From positions 1 to 28,767 of the forward strand of contig NATK01000002.1 of NCBI GenBank assembly GCA_002085285.1: a stretch of DNA of 28,767 nt, written 5' to 3'. The translations under genes were made by a program, and so were the position numbers. Below the pieces are notes generated by a model that worked only from the letters and a program-made list of their open reading frames with translations, searched no databases and was not told where the DNA came from. The DNA is from Candidatus Latescibacteria bacterium 4484_7. Its GTDB lineage: Bacteria > Krumholzibacteriota > Krumholzibacteriia > Krumholzibacteriales > Krumholzibacteriaceae. Positions 1 through 8,459 of this stretch are shown here, in pieces (position 1 is the stretch's first letter; every line of letters begins with the position of its first letter).

Positions 1-60
1 TATTATCATAAGTTGAATAGTAGTGGAACTTATTCAATATTTATGCTCTCAAGAGAATAA
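1..60 (+). CDS. 3' end of an upstream (probable cassette) ORF, partial
   Basis: Frame 1 is open from base 1 (YYHKLNSSGTYSIFMLSRE) to TAA at 58-60, just before the first attC-like site. Only 19 codons are visible. Confidence 0.4.
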   Translation, partial: YYHKLNSSGTYSIFMLSRE

Positions 61-83
61 TTATTGTACGACTGAAAAGCTAC

Positions 84-216
84 TGCCGACAATTGTATAT
101 AAGGCATTGGGCGGTAAGTGGTTAAATTGAAAGATATGAACATTAATAAGCGGCATAGTAAATTGAAAGTTAGGTGTTTCAAAACGCCCAACGCCTCATA
201 TACTTGACCGTTATAT
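84..216 (+). repeat. attC-like site 1 (long type, left core box degenerate)
   Basis: Arms 95-113 GTATATAAGGCATTGGGCG and 185-203 CGCCCAACGCCTCATATAC are complementary at 17/19. They are followed by the core GTTATAT (GTTRRRY-like) at 210-216. The left box reads GCCGAC rather than a clean ..AAC. Confidence 0.7.
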
Positions 217-252
217 GAAATTTTGGGGCCTTATAAAATGGAGGCAATAATA

Positions 253-2121
253 ATGAAGCATATTTGTCTGATTTTATCGATATTGGCTCTTATTTCGCCA
301 CTATCAGCACAAGAGGGTCAAAAGGGGATTAAAATAGAGGGTAACCTCTATGAGAATGAAAGCTTAGGGATAAAGGTAAGACTTACTGAAGGAAACTGGT
401 ATTATGAAGATAAAAGCCAGGGCCCGGCGAGCGTCATTGTATTGTCAAATCCAGAAGTGGAAAAATTCAAATTCACGATTGTCATGATGCCGGCAGTGAT
501 AGGAATAAAGACTGCTGAGGATAGAGATGCACAACTTTCCTCATTTTTTGGCGATAAGTATAAGCGGGTAGAACTTGGCAAGGGAGAGATTGATAACAGG
601 GAGACAACAGTCCTTGTTTACGATTTAGTCGTAGCTGATACCTTAACTACCAGGGTTTATACTCATGTACTGGTTGTTGGAGACAATACTTACATGATGC
701 AAATTTCTGGCCCTAAGGATCAATGGGAAGCGAAATACAAACAGTTTGAATCAATATTCAACTATATCTTATTTACCGAAAGAAAGCCGGAAAGAAAGGA
801 AGTTGAAATCAAGAAGGAAGAGGAAGAAAAGCAGGCCGGGTTAACCAAGAATGCAAAAATAATACATCACCTCATAAGGATAGATGTCAATCCTCGTAGC
901 GGTGAGTTCAAGTCATCTGATAAGTTTACCATAAGGATTATAAAAGATAAGATAAAAGAAGTGGAATTCCTCCTATCCGATCTTGTAATTGATTCCATTA
1001 AACTTGGTGATGAAAATTTATCCTTTTCCATGGTAGATTATCAAGAGACGGGTAGAAAAAAGCTCACCGTTAATTTGCCCGCCGACTATGATTCGACTAC
1101 CGAGCTTACCCTGAACTTTTCTGCCCATAAGTCTGATTACCTATTTACTGCGGCGGGTAAGCTGATTGCTGGATATAATATTCTTGGACAGGTAAGGGAG
1201 AAGTCGAGTTATAGTTCCCACGTTTTATATTATCCCGTGGATGAAGATAATGACGCTGCCGGTGAGATATGGATAACCGTGCCATCAGGTTATATCGCTA
1301 TAAGTGTAGGAAAACTTGTTGATGTGGATTCAACCGAAGACAAATCTATATATCATTGGAAAACAGATATTGCTATTCCACGAATATTGCCTTTTGCTTT
1401 CGCTGTTGGTGAATACGAAAAATACTCCGCTACTACAAAGTCAGGCGTCCCAGTAGAAATTTACACTTGGAAAGTGAATGAGGAGCATGCACTCAGGAGG
1501 CTTGATTTGGCTTGTGATATTATCGATTTCTATAATGAAATATTCGGGCAGTTTCCATTTGAAAAGATTGCCATAATACATGTCACCCCAGAAAAGGGTA
1601 TAGCTGGTGTAAGCCTGCCAACTATGATTCTGCTCTCAGACATGTTTTTCACATCCGATTGCTCATATGAAATAATCAAAGAGGATGTGAGAAAATCATT
1701 CCTTGGTCCATTGGTATTGGCTGATGAAATATCACATCAATGGAATGCTTACGCTGTCGCTTTTCCTAATGAACTGGCAGAAGGAATGGCTCAGTATACG
1801 GATGCGTTGTTTGCCGAACATGTAGGTGGAAAACAAGTACTGAAAAATCACATTAAATATCACTCAAGTCTATATAAAGCAGCCATAGAAAACAATCCCG
1901 ATACACCCATAGCATCGCCTGAGATTTACAAGACCCAGGCGTATCAGGGTATTGCCTTCAGTAAGGGAGCGTTGGTGCTTAACATGTTACGCTGTGTTGT
2001 GGGTGATTCCAACTTCTTCGCCGGAATGCGACACATTTTTGAAGAATACTCTGGTAAAAAAGCGGGCTACGATGACATTAAACAGGCGATGGAGAAGTTT
2101 TATGGGGATTCTCTGGGTTAG
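253..2121 (+). CDS. Secreted M1 (gluzincin) aminopeptidase-like protein, N-terminal main part; split by frameshift
   Basis: GGAGG RBS at 240-244 and ATG at 253. Signal peptide MKHICLILSILALISPLSA. M1-like segments: HHLIRIDVNP, FAFAVGEY, FGQFPFEK, DEISHQW..EGMAQY, YQGIAFSKGALVLNMLR. Confidence 0.75.
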   Translation: MKHICLILSILALISPLSAQEGQKGIKIEGNLYENESLGIKVRLTEGNWYYEDKSQGPASVIVLSNPEVEKFKFTIVMMPAVIGIKTAEDRDAQLSSFFGDKYKRVELGKGEIDNRETTVLVYDLVVADTLTTRVYTHVLVVGDNTYMMQISGPKDQWEAKYKQFESIFNYILFTERKPERKEVEIKKEEEEKQAGLTKNAKIIHHLIRIDVNPRSGEFKSSDKFTIRIIKDKIKEVEFLLSDLVIDSIKLGDENLSFSMVDYQETGRKKLTVNLPADYDSTTELTLNFSAHKSDYLFTAAGKLIAGYNILGQVREKSSYSSHVLYYPVDEDNDAAGEIWITVPSGYIAISVGKLVDVDSTEDKSIYHWKTDIAIPRILPFAFAVGEYEKYSATTKSGVPVEIYTWKVNEEHALRRLDLACDIIDFYNEIFGQFPFEKIAIIHVTPEKGIAGVSLPTMILLSDMFFTSDCSYEIIKEDVRKSFLGPLVLADEISHQWNAYAVAFPNELAEGMAQYTDALFAEHVGGKQVLKNHIKYHSSLYKAAIENNPDTPIASPEIYKTQAYQGIAFSKGALVLNMLRCVVGDSNFFAGMRHIFEEYSGKKAGYDDIKQAMEKFYGDSLG

Positions 2122-2363
2122 AAAAAGCCGAAAAACATAAAGATAAATACTTGGTTTCTGTCCTTGTAAAACAGACACAGGGAGGAAAGCCTTTTACGAT
2201 GCCTATAGATATTTCATTCATGTCTGCCGAATGTGAGAAAACCTTTCCCAAAGTAATGGTCAACCAAAAAGAAGAGAGATTGACCTTTGAACTTGACTTT
2301 CGTCCGCAAGATGTTAGGATTGACAAAGAAGGCATGCTGTTAAAAGATGTAGTATATAAATAA
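2118..2363 (+). pseudogene. C-terminal fragment of the M1 peptidase in a shifted frame
   Basis: Frame 3 reads LEKAEKHKDKYLVSVLVKQTQGGKPFTMPIDI...DVRIDKEGMLLK, a typical M1 C-terminal beta domain. The WFFxQW segment expected after DSLG is absent. Confidence 0.6.
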
Positions 2364-2392
2364 TCGCATGTATGTTCGAGCCCCAAAACTTC

Positions 2393-2476
2393 ATATAACA
2401 GCATGTATCTGGTTCGGGCTTTCAGCGCTCATCTAAATCGCCTCCGACGATTTCAGATGCACTCAAACCGTTATAT
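2393..2476 (+). repeat. attC-like site 2
   Basis: ATATAAC at 2393-2399 and GTTATAT at 2470-2476. Arms GCATGTATCTG (2401-2411) and CAGATGCACTC (2454-2464) match at 8/11, with an inner AAATCG/CGATTT hairpin. Geometry is AAC+1 / 5+GTT, the same as site 3. Confidence 0.75.
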
Positions 2477-2550
2477 TCAGTTTGCTCCCTCGCTAAAAAT
2501 CAAAATCATGGGCCCCCGCCTTGTGTCTTAGGTATTTTTCTTGCCACAAT

Positions 2551-2565
2551 CGTAAACTTTATATA
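2551..2565 (+). promoter_or_regulatory. Putative promoter of arsR (BRE/TATA-like CGTAAAC-TTTATATA; weak TTGCCA -35 alternative at 2541)
   Basis: TTTATATA at 2558-2565 is preceded by a purine/A-rich element. It lies ~28 nt before an ATG that has no Shine-Dalgarno sequence. Confidence 0.45.
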
Positions 2566-2589
2566 TATATTGATAGTTATCAATATGCA
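2564..2589. promoter_or_regulatory. ArsR/SmtB-type 12-2-12 operator
   Basis: TATATATTGATA-GT-TATCAATATGCA has a perfect 9-2-9 core and 10/12 overall match. It sits immediately upstream of arsR. Confidence 0.65.
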
Positions 2590-2592
2590 AAT

Positions 2593-2868
2593 ATGAGAGA
2601 ATCACTAAAAATATTCAAGGCCTTATGCGATGAAACTCGGTTAAAAATAGTTGAATTTCTCCTTAGTGGAGAAAAATGTGTTTTTGAAATGGTTCCGTTT
2701 ACAAAAAGAATACAATCAACAGTTTCAGTTCAGTTATCAAAGCTTGAATATTTGGGGATTATTGGATCAAGAAGAGAGGGTAAAAGGATATATTATAAAC
2801 TGACAAACGAGAAAGTGAGAGAAATATTAAGAATACTAAATGAGAGAAACCAGGATAAATATAATTAA
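2593..2868 (+). CDS. ArsR/SmtB family transcriptional regulator
   Basis: IFKALCDETRLKIVEFL..GEKCVFEM..QSTVSVQLSKL..G....RREGKRIYY winged HTH signature. Confidence 0.9.
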   Translation: MRESLKIFKALCDETRLKIVEFLLSGEKCVFEMVPFTKRIQSTVSVQLSKLEYLGIIGSRREGKRIYYKLTNEKVREILRILNERNQDKYN

Positions 2869-2895
2869 AACATCTAAAATATTGGAGGAAGTGCT

Positions 2896-3936
2896 ATGTT
2901 AAGAGATGTAGAATGTAAATGCCAGATTGTTAAGAACTTTGCACCATCCTGGTTTGCAAGCATCATGGGAACGGGAATACTTGCTCTGACTAGCTTACTT
3001 TACTCCCAATATGTTCCTCTCCTGAAAAACCTGGCTTATGTCTTGTTCTACTTTAACATTATTCTTTTCTTTGTCTTATTAATCCCATGGATTCTTAGGT
3101 GGATATTCTTCAGAAAAGAAGCATTAAAAGATTTAGAGCATCCTGTGCTCTCAAATTTCTATGCTACGATAGCGATAGGTATGCTTGTTTTAGCAGCGGA
3201 TTTCATTGTAATTGGTAATAACATTGAGATTGGAAAGGTTTTTTGGTTTATAGGATCACTGGCTACAATATTCTTTAGCATACTCACACCATATTTAATG
3301 TTCAAAGGTGAGCATGTTAAACTTGACCACATAAATCCAGCATGGTTTATTCCACCAGTCGGACTAATTGTGATTCCCATTGCAGGAAGTTTAATTATTC
3401 CACATGTATTAGGAATGGCGCGGCAGTATGTTATATTTCTTAACTATTTTGGATGGGGCTCTGGCTTTTTTATCTATCTCGCTCTATTAGCTATAACAAT
3501 GTATCGTTTTATTCTTCATCATCCTCTACCAAACACTCTCGCTCCAACCATATGGATAAACCTTGGACCCATCGGAGCAGGGACTGTTGCATTGGTTAAC
3601 CTCATCAAAAACTCATCTTTTATAGCAGTGAAAGAACCTTTCTTCGTATTTGGATTTTTGTTCTGGGGGTTTGGTATTTGGTGGGTTATAATAGCTATTG
3701 CAATGACCCTGCACTACATAAAAAGACTGAAGCTTCCCTATGCAATGTCTTGGTGGGCTTTTACATTTCCTCTCGGAGCGTATGTAGCTGCAAGTCATAC
3801 AATCTCGTCATTATTTGAAATTCAACTAATAGATTACGTTGGTTTTGCTTTATATTGGCTTTTAGTTATTTTCTGGGTGGTTACTTTTGTAAAAACTCTT
3901 ATACGTGCATATCATGGGACGCTGTTTAAGGTTTGA
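2896..3936 (+). CDS. TDT (tellurite-resistance/dicarboxylate, SLAC1/TehA-like) transporter
   Basis: GGAGG RBS. FAPSWFASIMGTG, NPAWFIPPVG and PYAMSWWAFTFPLG motifs; about 10 hydrophobic segments. Confidence 0.88.
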   Translation: MLRDVECKCQIVKNFAPSWFASIMGTGILALTSLLYSQYVPLLKNLAYVLFYFNIILFFVLLIPWILRWIFFRKEALKDLEHPVLSNFYATIAIGMLVLAADFIVIGNNIEIGKVFWFIGSLATIFFSILTPYLMFKGEHVKLDHINPAWFIPPVGLIVIPIAGSLIIPHVLGMARQYVIFLNYFGWGSGFFIYLALLAITMYRFILHHPLPNTLAPTIWINLGPIGAGTVALVNLIKNSSFIAVKEPFFVFGFLFWGFGIWWVIIAIAMTLHYIKRLKLPYAMSWWAFTFPLGAYVAASHTISSLFEIQLIDYVGFALYWLLVIFWVVTFVKTLIRAYHGTLFKV

Positions 3937-3998
3937 TGTGATGAAAGTTGACGCTAGACATATGACATTCTGCCCAAAACCTAAGGAGATGAATTTAT

Positions 3999-5773
3999 AT
4001 GTTTGAAAAAATAAGAAAAAGGGATGGAAGAATTGTAAAGTTTGACCCCGAGAGAATTACAAACGCAATTTCTAAAGCAGGTGCAGCAACAGGTGAATTT
4101 GATAGAGATATAGCAAAGAAAGTATATTATTTACAGAGAACAGCACGCAAGAATCAGAGAAATTATATCTAAAGCCAATAACGATCTTGTAGATCAGTAT
4201 CTTAATAAAATAGATTGGGAGGTTAAAGAGAACAGTAATATGTCTTTTTCTTTACAGGGACTTAACAATTATATTTCCTCTAAAGTAAGTAAGATGTATT
4301 GGCTGAATAAAATATATCCAGCAGAGATAAGAAATGCCCATATAGAGGGTGATTTTCATATCCATGATTTGGGTATATTATCTGTTTACTGTGTTGGGTG
4401 GGATTTGTTCGATTTATTATCAGAAGGTTTTAAAGGAGCTGCGGGAAAAATAGAGAGCAAACCTGCAAAGCACTTCAGGAGTGCTTTAGGGCAAATTGTT
4501 AATTTTTTCTATACTCTTCAAGGTGAAGCTGCTGGGGCACAAGCATTTTCCAACTTTGACACTTTCCTTGCCCCATTTATTCGATATGACAATCTATCAT
4601 ATAAAGAGGTTAAACAAGCTTTACAGGAATTTTTATTTAATCTAAATGTCCCCACAAGAGTGGGATTTCAAACCCCTTTTACAAATATAACTTTGGATTT
4701 AAGATCTCTAGAGTATCTCAAAAATCAACCAGTTGTTTTTGGAGGAACGCCTCAGAAGGAAACTTACGGAGATTTCGAAGAGGAAATGATGTTGTTCAAT
4801 AAGGCTTTCTTGGAGGTTATGTTGGAAGGTGATGCAAAAGGCAGAGTTTTTACCTTCCCTATTCCTACATATAACATTACCGGAGATTTTGATTGGGACG
4901 CCGAGTTTTTGAATACGTTATGGGAGATAACTGCAAAATATGGTATTCCATACTTCTCTAATTTTGTTAATTCAGATATGAAACCAGAAGATGCAAGAAG
5001 TATGTGCTGTAGGTTAAGGCTGGACACAAGGAAATTGGAGAAAAGGGGTGGCGGACTATTTGGGGCAAATCCACTTACAGGAAGCATCGGTGTTGTATCA
5101 ATCAACATGCCGAGATTAGGTTATTTCTCAAAGGATGAGAACGAATTTTTTGAAAGATTGGACATGCTGATGCAATTGGCAAAGAATAGTTTAGAGATGA
5201 AGAGAAGAATTCTGGAAAAGCTTACAGGGCAGGGCTTGTATCCTTACACCAAGTACTATTTGAGAAATATTAAAAAACGATTTGGTGCATATTGGAAAAA
5301 TCACTTTTCTACGATAGGGTTGGTTGGATTGAATGAAGCCTGCTTAAATCTTCTGGGGGTGACTATCGGCGACAGAGAGGGTAAAGAATTTGGATTGAAG
5401 GTCTTGGAGTTTATGAAGAATAAACTTATTGAATTCCAGGAGGAGACTGGAAACAATTATAACCTGGAAGCAACCCCTGCTGAGGGGACTTCCTATCGTC
5501 TCGCGATGATAGATAAGAAGAAGTATCCTGACATAGTATGTGCAAATGAGCAAGCATTCAGAAACGGTGCAGAGCCCTTTTATACGAATTCCTCTCAACT
5601 TCCAGTCAATTATACAGATGATATATTTGAGGCTCTTGACCTGTCCGAAGTGCGATGCTACATGTGAGGTGTACTCAAGAGTTGTAGGGTATCTGAGACC
5701 CGTAAATCAATGGAATAACGGGAAAAAGGAAGAATTCAGAATGAGGAATAGTTTTAAGGTGATGACAAAATGA
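3999..5773 (+). pseudogene. nrdD: Anaerobic (class III) ribonucleoside-triphosphate reductase, disrupted in three frames
   Basis: ATP-cone start MFEKIRKRDGRIVKFD at 3999-4172 (RBS AAGGAG at 3983). The core from 4123-5667 has SMCCRLRLD and EATPAEG. The glycyl-radical tail TCPKC..EVYSRVVGYLRP is in a third frame ending at 5773. Confidence 0.88.
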
Positions 5774-6462
5774 AAATCGCCGGTTTTCAGAAATTCTCTT
5801 TGATAGACTACCCAAGTAAAATCAGTGCAATCATCTTTACCCAAGGATGTAATTTCAGATGTCCCTACTGCCATAATCCAGAACTAGTAAATCCGGAACT
5901 ATTTTCAGACACCTTAGATGAAGATTTAATACTTACTTTCTTAAGTAAAAGGATCGGCAAATTAGATGGTGTAGTTATCACGGGAGGGGAACCTCTGCTT
6001 CAGCATGATTTAATAGAGTTTATAAAAAAGGTAAAGGAAATGGGTTATCTTGTAAAACTTGATACAAATGGGAGTTATCCAGAAAATTTGGAGCGATTGT
6101 TAGCTAAAAATCTGATCGATTACATAGCAATGGATATTAAAGCTCCTCTTGAAAAATACCATAATGTTGTGCAGGCAGATGTTTGTACAGAAAAGATAAT
6201 GGAAAGCATTACGATAATTCTAAATAGCAATATAGATTACGAATTTCGAACCACAGTAGTGAAGGATCTCCTAATAGAAGATGATTTAATTTGCATAGCC
6301 AAGTTAATTAGAGGTGCAAAGAGATATGTTTTGCAAAAGTTTGTTATGTCAAAGATATTAGATAAGTCATTTGCCAGTAATGTAAAATGCTTTTCAGAAG
6401 ACGAATTAAATACCATAATAGACAAAGTGAAAAAATATGTCAGCGAATGTATTATGCGATGA
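5770..6462 (+). CDS. nrdG: Anaerobic RNR activating radical SAM enzyme
   Basis: GCNFRCPYCHN CxxxCxxC motif and ITGGEPLLQ. ATGA overlap with the nrdD tail stop. Confidence 0.92.
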   Translation: MKIAGFQKFSLIDYPSKISAIIFTQGCNFRCPYCHNPELVNPELFSDTLDEDLILTFLSKRIGKLDGVVITGGEPLLQHDLIEFIKKVKEMGYLVKLDTNGSYPENLERLLAKNLIDYIAMDIKAPLEKYHNVVQADVCTEKIMESITIILNSNIDYEFRTTVVKDLLIEDDLICIAKLIRGAKRYVLQKFVMSKILDKSFASNVKCFSEDELNTIIDKVKKYVSECIMR

Positions 6463-6525
6463 TTACCTGAGGTTTTGGGCGGAACGCTTCGTCGCTTCGC
6501 TTTTTGTCCTCACTTAGTTTGGGTC

Positions 6526-6604
6526 ATATAACACGGGCTATACGGCTCGTTTCACTTGCCCAAATTTGCTAACGCAAACTTTGTATAGCCCGAATACGTT
6601 AAGT
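6526..6604 (+). repeat. attC-like site 3
   Basis: ATATAAC at 6526-6532 and GTTAAGT at 6598-6604. Perfect 10-bp arms CGGGCTATAC (6534-6543) and GTATAGCCCG (6583-6592), with an inner TTTGC-TAAC-GCAAA hairpin. Confidence 0.78.
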
Positions 6605-6867
6605 GGAACGCCCGAATTGATAAAAACTATATCGAGATTGAGGTGGCCTAATATATGATCAATATAGAGAGAAAAGTAAAGGTAGGTGTAAGATTGCCTT
6701 TGCAGGTTTTATCCTGCTCATAGTCACAAGCGGTTCAGGATGCCAAAACAACAATTATCACCCTACCAAGCCGCAGCAATCACTTTTTCTTCTCCCCGCA
6801 TCGGCACAAATACTTTTTGTTTCTAACGCGGCGCATAGTGTAGCGCGTCTTTCAAATGATAGAATGG

Positions 6868-8427
6868 CTATACCAATGTGTATTTGAACTCGTCCGCGTC
6901 GATTCCGTATTTTTTCATCTTGTACCTCAAAGCACCTCGGCCGAGCCTCAGGAGCCTCGCCGCTTCTGTTACCCGCCCCCCGCTCTTTTCGAGGGCCGCT
7001 ATGATGAGTCCCTTTTCCACCTCGTCTATTGCGATCCCTTCGGGGGGGAAATCGATTCGCACCGTCCCTGCTTCTTTTTCGATGTCGAGAGACGATGTGC
7101 CGACCGAAGTGCCGTTCGGAGTGGTGCCCGAAGTGCCGTTCGGAGTGCCGTCCGGAGCGCCGTTCGGAGTGGTGCCCGAAGCGCCGACGGTTGATTCTAT
7201 AGGCAGGTCTTCGGGCTTTATCTTACCCGACCTGTTCAGAAGCACCGCCCTTTCGATGACGTTTATGAGCTCGCGGATATTCCCCGGCCAATGGTATTCC
7301 TGCAATGCATCGAGTGCTTCTTCCGAGATGGTCACACCTCCCTTGTTCAATCTCGCTGCAAAGCGGCTTACGTATTCGATGGCGATGGGGCGAATGTCTT
7401 CTTTCCTCTCTCTAAGCGGTGGCAGGTTGATCTCGACCACATTGAGTCTGTAGTATAGATCCTCCCTGAAACGGCCCTGGGCCACCTCTTCTTTCAGGTT
7501 TCGGTTTGTCGCCGAGATGATTCTCACGTCCACAGGGAGGAATTCGACACCGCTCACGCGTCTTATGGTCCTCGTATCGAGGAACTTGAGGAGCTTCGCC
7601 TGGAGGGCATAATCTATCTCGGCGATCTCGTCGAGAAATATAGTGCCTCCGTCTGCGACTTCAAAGAGGCCTGCCTTCTCTTCACGAGCATCGGTGAATG
7701 CACCTTTTTCGTGTCCGAAGAACTCGCTCTCCAGGAGATTGCGTGGTATCGCTGCACAGTTGACCTCTACGAAGGGACCGCTGCGACGCGGACTTGCCTC
7801 GTGTATCGCCTTTGCGAGGGAGCCCTTGCCCGTTCCGCATTCACCCGTTATTATGACAGACGTGCATTCACTTTCAGCGACCTTTAGCGCGAGTTCCTTG
7901 ACCTCCATGATCTTCGGGCTTTCGCCGATTATCTGATCGAAGCCTTCGTCAATCTCCTTATTGGGATTGAGGCTCTGTTTCAGCCGCCTCTTTCCGAGCC
8001 CGGTTGCGATGCGGGACAGCATCTCTTCGAGGTCCTTGTATGAGTAAGGTTTGAAAAGAATATGCCTTGCACCGAGCTCTATGCCCAGTTTGTCACCGCC
8101 GTGAAATTCTCCGGGGATGATAAGGATGAGCTGAACCTTCTTGTTCTTCCTGAGGTACATGGACAGGGTGTCTTTTTCTTTTTGAAAGGCCTCCTCGGTT
8201 TCCGGCACGGAATAGATCAGAAGATGCTTGTTCCCGTTCTTATCACCTGCTGCGGCCTTTTTCCCACTGCGAGCGCTGACAGGGTTGGCATTCCGCCGCG
8301 CTGCCCGTATCAACTCACCGGCATCCGCGTAGGAATCCACACTCCATCCGTGTTCGCCGAAGAACAGCTCGAGCGAGCTGCGCTCATCGTCGTCTGCGGC
8401 TACTATATTCAGTCCGAGGGATATCAT
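6868..8427 (-). CDS. Sigma54-dependent enhancer-binding protein (NtrC family) with degenerate receiver domain
   Basis: Walker A GECGTGK, NCAAIP, GAFTDA, IFLDEI, RFREDLYYRLNV, WPGNIREL and a C-terminal Fis-type HTH. The ORF is open from TTG 8448; ATG 8427 is preferred as start. Confidence 0.9.
   Translation of the reverse strand: MISLGLNIVAADDDERSSLELFFGEHGWSVDSYADAGELIRAARRNANPVSARSGKKAAAGDKNGNKHLLIYSVPETEEAFQKEKDTLSMYLRKNKKVQLILIIPGEFHGGDKLGIELGARHILFKPYSYKDLEEMLSRIATGLGKRRLKQSLNPNKEIDEGFDQIIGESPKIMEVKELALKVAESECTSVIITGECGTGKGSLAKAIHEASPRRSGPFVEVNCAAIPRNLLESEFFGHEKGAFTDAREEKAGLFEVADGGTIFLDEIAEIDYALQAKLLKFLDTRTIRRVSGVEFLPVDVRIISATNRNLKEEVAQGRFREDLYYRLNVVEINLPPLRERKEDIRPIAIEYVSRFAARLNKGGVTISEEALDALQEYHWPGNIRELINVIERAVLLNRSGKIKPEDLPIESTVGASGTTPNGAPDGTPNGTSGTTPNGTSVGTSSLDIEKEAGTVRIDFPPEGIAIDEVEKGLIIAALEKSGGRVTEAARLLRLGRGALRYKMKKYGIDADEFKYTLV
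7097..7190. repeat. 12-bp imperfect tandem repeat (about 7.8 units) inside the activator gene
   Basis: Units such as GTGCCGTTCGGA and GTGGTGCCCGAA. They encode GTTPNGAPDGTPNGTSGTTPNGTS between the AAA+ domain and the HTH. Confidence 0.9.
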
Positions 8428-8443
8428 ACCGTGTGTAACTTTG

Positions 8444-8459
8444 TGCAAGATATGTGCCT
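8444..8459 (-). promoter_or_regulatory. Putative sigma54 -24/-12 promoter
   Basis: The minus strand reads AGGCAC-ATATC-TTGCA, with exact GG-N10-GC spacing, just upstream of the activator gene. Confidence 0.45.

Follow-up and report, generated by a model that had tools for sequence, protein, structure and literature searches.

At its AT-rich left end (positions 1-6604), contig NATK01000002.1 carries the distal part of a chromosomal integron-type cassette array, a reading to which we assign a probability of about 0.85. The window, that is the whole stretch of DNA analysed here, is the entire 28.8-kb contig (C111) from a fragmented metagenome-assembled genome (MAG) that is 62% complete. Its GC content is 33-41% at positions 1-6600 versus 45-58% in the remainder, and all genes of the AT-rich block share one orientation; Pfam assigns them to an M1-family peptidase, arsR, a TDT/SLAC1 transporter, nrdD, broken into three pieces, and nrdG. 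In the proposed layout the tail of an upstream cassette with attC site 1 would be followed by a peptidase cassette with site 2, an arsR-TDT cassette without an attC site, an nrdDG cassette with site 3 and, finally, the chromosome:

1-83, plus strand: 3' tail of the upstream cassette, truncated by the contig start, with no open reading frame (ORF) of at least 60 aa
84-216, plus strand: attC site 1, 133 nt; stem arms 95-113 and 185-203 (89% complementary), conserved centre 159-186, outer core GTTATAT at 210-216
211-2470, plus strand: cassette 1, secreted M1-family peptidase (ATG at 253; PF01433); 2260 nt here, 2320 nt intact
2393-2476, plus strand: attC site 2, 84 nt; ATATAAC at 2393-2399, 5-nt spacer, GTATCTG pairing with CAGATGC, inner 11-bp hairpin, GTTATAT at 2470-2476
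2471-3959, plus strand: cassette 2, own attC lost, about 1.5 kb; arsR at 2593-2868 (91 aa, PF01022) and TDT/SLAC1-family transporter at 2896-3936 (PF03595)
3960-6598, plus strand: cassette 3; nrdD (class III ribonucleotide reductase, 3999-5773) and nrdG activase (5770-6462); PF03477, PF13597, PF04055
6526-6604, plus strand: attC site 3, the last of the array, 79 nt; ATATAAC at 6526-6532, perfect 10-bp stem 6534-6543/6583-6592, GTTAAGT at 6598-6604
6868-8448, minus strand: sigma-54-dependent activator, first host gene past the array, where the GC-rich chromosome starts

Natural variants of this locus break at the core sites of the palindromes. An independent assembly (L089) carries the same peptidase, arsR and TDT genes and the start of nrdD with 98.8-99.7% identity to the window from position 209 onward, and upstream of 209 it has a different cassette with its attC site, a segment of about 160 nt that gave no convincing fold as a whole. 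Identity starts at the base before GTTATAT (209/210), and with a 1.2% difference between them the two peptidase alleles indicate different strains and not one misassembly; the cassette boundary G|TTATAT marks a genuine recombination junction, differing between assemblies. Divergent loose ends past position 204 continue from CACC into GTTGGAC, GTTAGAT or GTTATAA, a contig of run X3 ends at 2476, and one of run X1 joins 2472 to 3960 with arsR-TDT being skipped. The metagenome depth spikes on the bins of all three sites, with the rise in the site-2 bin possibly coming from the abundant arsR promoter region instead. In the site-3 bin (6481-6720) the depth is about ten times that of its neighbours, one contig starts at 6527 and other contexts are found before 6524.

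The right-hand boundary bears on whether binning or assembly joined AT-rich foreign DNA to a GC-rich chromosome, as the sharp GC step at about 6600 and the deletions in this assembly, taken as artefacts, might suggest. The nrdG-site 3-sigma-54 junction, however, recurs in a 79-kb scaffold (L087) and in an assembly from a different Joint Genome Institute sample (L088), which excludes a chimera at the array-chromosome junction, and a contig of run X1 spans 6527-7200. We therefore regard such a joining artefact as hardly credible. The synteny and empty-site comparison yielded a relative, L225, whose HAL protein is about 90% identical and which is out of synteny before the array.

The three palindromes lie where the first-pass annotation of this DNA had placed them, each being preceded by a co-oriented ORF block as it had described, and all three behave as attC sites. 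Sites 2 and 3 show every feature expected of attC ends, i.e. AAC in the inner core, GTT in the outer core and an imperfect palindrome of 55-150 nt, and site 1 has the GTT but GAC in place of AAC. The core boxes of site 2, ATATAAC and GTTATAT, are complementary at 7/7 positions. Sites 2 and 3 have an R''-spacer-L'' layout in common (ATATAAC, A, 4-5 nt, TATCTGG or TATACGG) that is also present in L215 and at the attC start of an intI-linked array in genome G024, where only this start is readable as the contig ends there. Site 1 forms a 17-bp stem containing two A.C mismatches, in place of the two bulges, 6 bp apart, seen in attC sites of relatives, and its inner core is degenerate, reading TGCCGAC at 84-90 against xxxxAAC in its family, with one extra T besides. 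Folding of the bottom strands, a check that the first-pass annotation had proposed, gave structures that beat shuffled sequences at all three sites (z = -2.1, -2.9 and -3.0), and the bottom strands folded slightly better than the top strands. The pattern ATATAAC-N60-90-GTTRNRY, picked post hoc once the sites were known, occurs at two loci in the window (sites 2 and 3) versus 0.06 expected from shuffles.

Homology around site 3 is wider than the palindrome itself, as the multi-copy segment reaches about 50 nt upstream of ATATAAC (depth of about 610 at 6516; L215 homologous from 6478). Outside this site, TTGGGCG at 6476 is able to pair with CGCCCGA at 6610. Promoter-like sites were not above background in the scan, and an Rfam search of positions 1-7200 gave no match, Rfam holding no attC model.

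The relation between the palindromes follows the rule known from integrons, in which a site's outer end is part of the cassette that follows. As the first-pass annotation had noticed, ATATAAC at 2393 complements GTTATAT at 210, and ATATAAC at 6526 is complementary to GTTATAT at 2470 at 7/7 positions versus 5/7 for its own GTTAAGT.

This rule could be followed in other arrays via the family of site 1. The 27-nt core or centre of this site is present in at least 120 metagenome contigs from vents and sediments, and a search of the genome collection with its 3' half returned a G044 contig only. The 59 aligned family members run from xxxxAAC via a short spacer to a 17-bp stem, in which two A.C mismatches are conserved, and on through a conserved centre and a 5-nt spacer to GTTRRRY, with AAC and GTT being kept in 54-57 of them. 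Half of the stem pairs (8/16) are altered in both partners, covariation scores 0.145 versus 0.064 in shuffles (0 of 500 shuffles as high), and 88% of the stem positions pair, as compared to 27-42% once the partner is slid. At the four outer positions of the core, pairing with the own partner amounts to only 40-60%, as would be the case for a tail that is part of the following cassette. Accordingly scored, consecutive sites have an inner core that is the perfect (4/4) complement of the preceding outer core in 10 pairs (shuffles: mean 0.77, maximum 5), and one that matches their own outer core in 1 pair. The preceding-core rule holds too in the window (210/2393 and 2470/6526) and in L162 and L231. 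A covariance model of the family (R2) scored site 1 at 135 bits, though the window was in its training set, and site 2 at 11-14 bits, a weak and non-significant match whose boundaries are exact. Taken together, junction polymorphism, a covarying attC family and the preceding-core rule support the integron-type array that the first-pass annotation had put forward.

A different origin of the palindromes, as terminators, repetitive extragenic palindromic (REP)-like repeats or transposon-like ends in an ordinary AT-rich genomic island, has to be weighed against these data. The ends of the peptidase unit are inverted over 19/20 positions, much like transposon terminal repeats, a terminator-like hairpin is located at 6478-6493, and an attC model built from relatives (R1, see below) found no match. 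Terminator scoring, by contrast, rated none of the three sites as terminator-like, so that this reading of the palindromes was dropped, and neither a transposase domain nor a target duplication was found when looked for around 210-2399. Moreover, AAC/GTT ends, covariation, the preceding-core rule and breakpoints at G|TT are hallmarks of integrons. We thus consider a non-integron island very unlikely.

Several observations nevertheless weigh against an integron-type array. Model R1, for which four GC-rich attC sites from relatives served as the basis, recovered more than 20 attC sites in relatives and gives no match in the window; it is too family-specific for use as a general attC test. Sites 2 and 3 yielded no significant DNA relatives, only noise, in the 52 genomes of the host's order, and BLAST of both sites against 88 fetched loci returned same-locus copies only. 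The inner core of site 1 is GAC, not AAC, the lowest-energy fold of site 2 is asymmetric, and the spacers of site 3 are unequal (1 nt versus 5 nt); canonical extrahelical bases are found in neither site 2 nor site 3, which have asymmetric loops. The 2472-3960 joint is represented by one low-depth contig with a 4-nt overlap. Finally, the MAG contigs contain no integrase but only a XerC-like gene beside hslV, although the enzyme may be merely unassembled as the contig starts inside the array.

The ends of the cassettes proved to be complementary well beyond the 7-nt core, with the 5' end of a cassette matching the flank of its own attC over 9-20 nt; the first cassette of genome G029 does so over 10 nt. 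The peptidase cassette matches at 19/20 positions (210-229 versus 2380-2399), and the start of the nrdDG cassette, GTTATATGAC, complements the 10 nt that close with the ATATAAC of site 3 (3957-3966 versus 6523-6532). For arsR-TDT the counterpart is found elsewhere. The module at 2564-3951, whose cassette has an operator-like palindrome at 2560-2593, recurs with 82-87% identity in a bacterial contig (L215:5680-7054) and in a Nanoarchaeota MAG (L216-218; L216:5144-6536). In L215 it is followed by an attC-like, site-3-like element that is homologous to window positions 6478-6600 and contains GAATATAAC, and the start of the arsR-TDT cassette, GTTATATTC, is the complement of GAATATAAC (2470-2478 versus L215:~7262-7270). 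No attC is present between TDT and nrdD in the window, where 3890-3966 is without a fold (-3.2 kcal/mol, z = 0.16).

On the basis of the X1 joint, the L215 element, the complementary ends and the missing fold between TDT and nrdD, we distinguish three cassettes, the middle one having no attC. The three cassettes of the first-pass annotation were thus retained, on the strength of the X1 joint and the end complementarities, but its three sites do not separate them, as they delimit only two intervals; between attC2 and attC3 lies one fused unit, 4.13 kb long here and 4.45 kb when intact. The 2.3 kb given there for the peptidase cassette compares with 2.32 kb intact, and the 2.6 kb of the metabolic operon with an nrdDG cassette of 2639 nt in the window and roughly 2960 nt in intact form.

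Judged from its distribution, arsR-TDT is a promiscuous two-gene module, which fits cassette traffic across domains. The protein is 84-91% identical across many MAGs, and in the Nanoarchaeota MAG the module adjoins an archaeal-type threonyl-tRNA synthetase (ThrRS). Right after the nrdG stop, L087 carries a 73-nt insertion (L087:1682-1754, corresponding to window 6441-6477) that involves a partial duplication and is seen neither in the window nor in L088.

Two genes are frameshifted in the window, the peptidase gene by 55 nt missing at 2116/2117 and nrdD by 125 nt missing at 4121/4122 and 197 nt at 5640/5641. All three deletions are out of frame, each with a short microhomology. Five assemblies (L087-L091) and contigs of runs X1-X3 contain the missing stretches, so that the frameshifts are peculiar to this assembly; the deletions probably arose during assembly or else represent a rare variant. 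The intact peptidase ORF, as read in L089, has 721 aa. In L091 the peptidase gene is too diverged for BLASTN over its first two thirds (L091:1-1478), and the 3' end together with arsR is 99% identical, representing either a recombinant allele or a chimera.

These lesions would also be in line with a fossil array, i.e. a cluster of attC sites lacking integrases (CALIN) in which the cassettes came by integron recombination and are now fixed in a decaying chromosome. The MAG was found without an integrase, the inner core of site 1 is mutated to GAC, the attC of arsR-TDT has been lost, and both frameshifts reside in cassette genes. Against this, the MAG is just 62% complete with the contig starting inside the array, the frameshifts are found in no other assembly nor in the contigs of runs X1-X3, and two upstream neighbours as well as the variant that lacks arsR-TDT coexist in nature. 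On balance, a fixed and decaying array is unlikely.

Concerning the recombinase, canonical intI genes above the cut-off are present in 21 of the 52 genomes of the order, with the arrays lying 3' of intI. The attI cores of these canonical integrons are GTTAG or GTTAA in 9 of 10 cases, and that of G010 is GTTATGT. Besides canonical IntI, the order possesses a second, IntI-like tyrosine recombinase that is without the IntI insertion and whose gene often lies at the end of a contig. Its score on NF040815 is 236-250 bits, it lies under the TIGR02249 cut-off, and its family comprises thousands of homologues, mostly from Bacteroidota. The loci at which it was read are:

L162:1-3069, minus strand: insertion-less recombinase locus
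L231:10001-20200: insertion-less recombinase locus
G029, C1:1091842-1094118 (L236): insertion-less recombinase locus
G006, C49 (L237): insertion-less recombinase locus
G008 (L238): insertion-less recombinase locus
G039, C2:872208 (L241): insertion-less recombinase locus

The gene is followed by AAATAAAC(T/C)|GTTATnn as attI and by cassettes that obey the complementarity rule, with GTTATnn in 9/9 cases read. The combination of recombinase, GTTATnn attI and co-oriented array was found in G006, G008, G027, G029, G039, L162 and L231, and not in the window genome. In G006 the first cassette opens with GTTATATGAAAT, as the peptidase cassette of the window does. In L162 and a complete Draconibacterium genome the insertion-less enzyme stands at the head of arrays whose attC are of the site-1 type, and in G039 a site-1-type attC lies about 11 kb downstream of it.

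As its GTTATnn attI cores resemble the cores of the window, an IntI-like enzyme without the IntI insertion is the favoured recombinase, and the cognate enzyme may therefore be other than the insertion-bearing IntI expected by the first-pass annotation. Movement of a real array by the order's canonical, insertion-bearing IntI has a sizeable though clearly smaller chance. It is suggested by the occurrence of intI in 21/52 genomes, by the first attC beside the canonical intI of G027, which ends in GTTATAT, by the intI-linked array of G024 with its site-2-like attC start and by the GTTATGT core of G010. The attI cores speak against it (GTTAG/GTTAA in 9/10 versus GTTAT in 9/9 for the insertion-less type), as do the site-1-type attC sites that come after the insertion-less type in L162 and about 11 kb downstream in G039. 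In their integron-like subgroup, Smyshlyaev et al. 2021 found the insertion 'not fully conserved', and IntegronFinder 2.0 reported almost no integrons in Bacteroidetes; in the literature searched, no description of platforms with an insertion-less recombinase was found.

The sites, their family membership or multi-copy nature, the preceding-core rule and the natural variants broken at core sites are direct observations, and the identity of the recombinase and ongoing activity in this strain are inferences. In the mechanism proposed, a tyrosine recombinase encoded left of the contig start would bind the folded strand of the attC hairpins, and strands would be exchanged at the G|TT step of the outer core (GTTATAT). 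Cassettes would thereby be excised as circles and reinserted at attI or at another attC.

The array resembles several known systems without coinciding with any of them. As in the Vibrio cholerae superintegron with its VCR-type attC (V. cholerae repeats), co-oriented cassettes end in imperfect palindromes (79-133 nt here) with AAC...GTT cores. In common with sedentary chromosomal integrons it has the G|TT crossover, an outer-core tail that lies in the next cassette, attC families common to many cassettes, AT-rich foreign cargo and, in sister arrays, defence genes. It differs from them in having cassettes of 1.5-3 kb with whole operons rather than the typical 0.5-1 kb, an end complementarity of 9-20 nt rather than 7, two conserved A.C mismatches in site 1 in place of bulged bases, and no integrase seen in the window. 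One-strand attC sites on a contig without intI are typical of CALIN, for which Cury et al. 2016 (PMC4889954) require two or more attC sites on one strand, spaced by less than 4 kb and with no intI in the vicinity; the spacing is 2.26 kb for sites 1 and 2, whereas for sites 2 and 3 (4.13 kb) it exceeds the 4-kb threshold, and the contig starts inside the array. The arrays of the order lie 3' of the integrase gene in the same orientation, like those of 'inverted-integrase' integrons of the Treponema type, whereas the window itself shows no integrase. The insertion-less IntI-like or Xer-like platforms described above share the GTTATnn attI core, co-oriented arrays, site-1-type attC and the complementarity rule; here, in contrast, the recombinase is not assembled in the MAG and the link is made via the core-site match and relatives.

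Fused cassettes of class 1 integrons arise where the intervening attC is lost. The presence of arsR-TDT and nrdDG between one pair of attC sites is similar, although the fusion here involves four genes and 4.1-4.45 kb.

The host of the array is, judged from sequence similarity, a predicted Zixibacteria-like bacterium of marine or hydrothermal sediment, a label chosen because the homologues of its core gene HAL that carry source names come from Zixibacteria or FCB-group bacteria at 81-84% identity. Metagenome runs containing window DNA are from marine sediment and hydrothermal vents. Within the sigma-54 activator gene next to the array, a 12-nt tandem repeat is present in five in-register copies at 7097-7186, and its length is polymorphic, 24 nt being missing at 7104 in contigs of runs X1 and X2.

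What sets the array apart is cassette size, along with the probably non-canonical recombinase. The largest cassette known to Cury et al. 2016 (PMC4889954) was about 2 kb, and attC sites were clustered at 4 kb. Recent preprints emphasise a constraint on cassette size, and according to one from 2024 long cassettes recombine poorly and integron defence systems are 'streamlined' to fit. Among 80 loci of the site-1 family we obtained 47 same-strand spacings with a median of about 1.46 kb, 13 of them at least 2 kb, all of them upper bounds, as the intervals may also contain attC sites of other families. ORF-filled stretches of 2.6-5.6 kb between site-1 family attC sites are the following:

L133:2341-5369
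L141:1647-6625
L105:3494-8556
L096:710-3520
L134:3235-6549
L118:138-2690

Several of the large gaps are filled by abutting ORFs, leaving no room for another site. In L096 and L133 the core rule holds over 3.0-3.2 kb, confirming these units as single cassettes of about 3 kb, and the spacings of 5.4-5.6 kb may be single cassettes as well. Among the cargo of the large stretches are a Hachiman system (HamA and helicase), paired restriction-modification methylases of the Eco57I type, an 851-aa TIR protein, a UvrD-like helicase accompanied by an Hsp70-like protein, and an operon whose three genes encode DUF1611, a racemase and an M15 peptidase.

A 2.3-kb cassette in two array contexts and multi-gene units of about 3 kb contradict the picture of small cassettes. 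If these units are mobile, the size limit would depend on the system, the default clustering of attC sites at 4 kb would split or miss such arrays, and housekeeping-type operons such as nrdDG could travel as cassettes. Tentatively, and at somewhat less than even odds, we suggest that in integron-like systems of the FCB group (such as Zixibacteria and Bacteroidota, from vents and sediments) whole-operon cassettes of 2-5.6 kb, among them nrdDG, Hachiman and methylase pairs, are routine and are moved by an IntI-like recombinase devoid of the supposedly essential insertion, that the extended core stem of 9-20 bp may allow this length, and that some cassettes, such as arsR-TDT, may circulate between Bacteria and Archaea. 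The array adds a Zixibacteria-like host and a testable recombinase pair to the question whether the IntI insertion is required.

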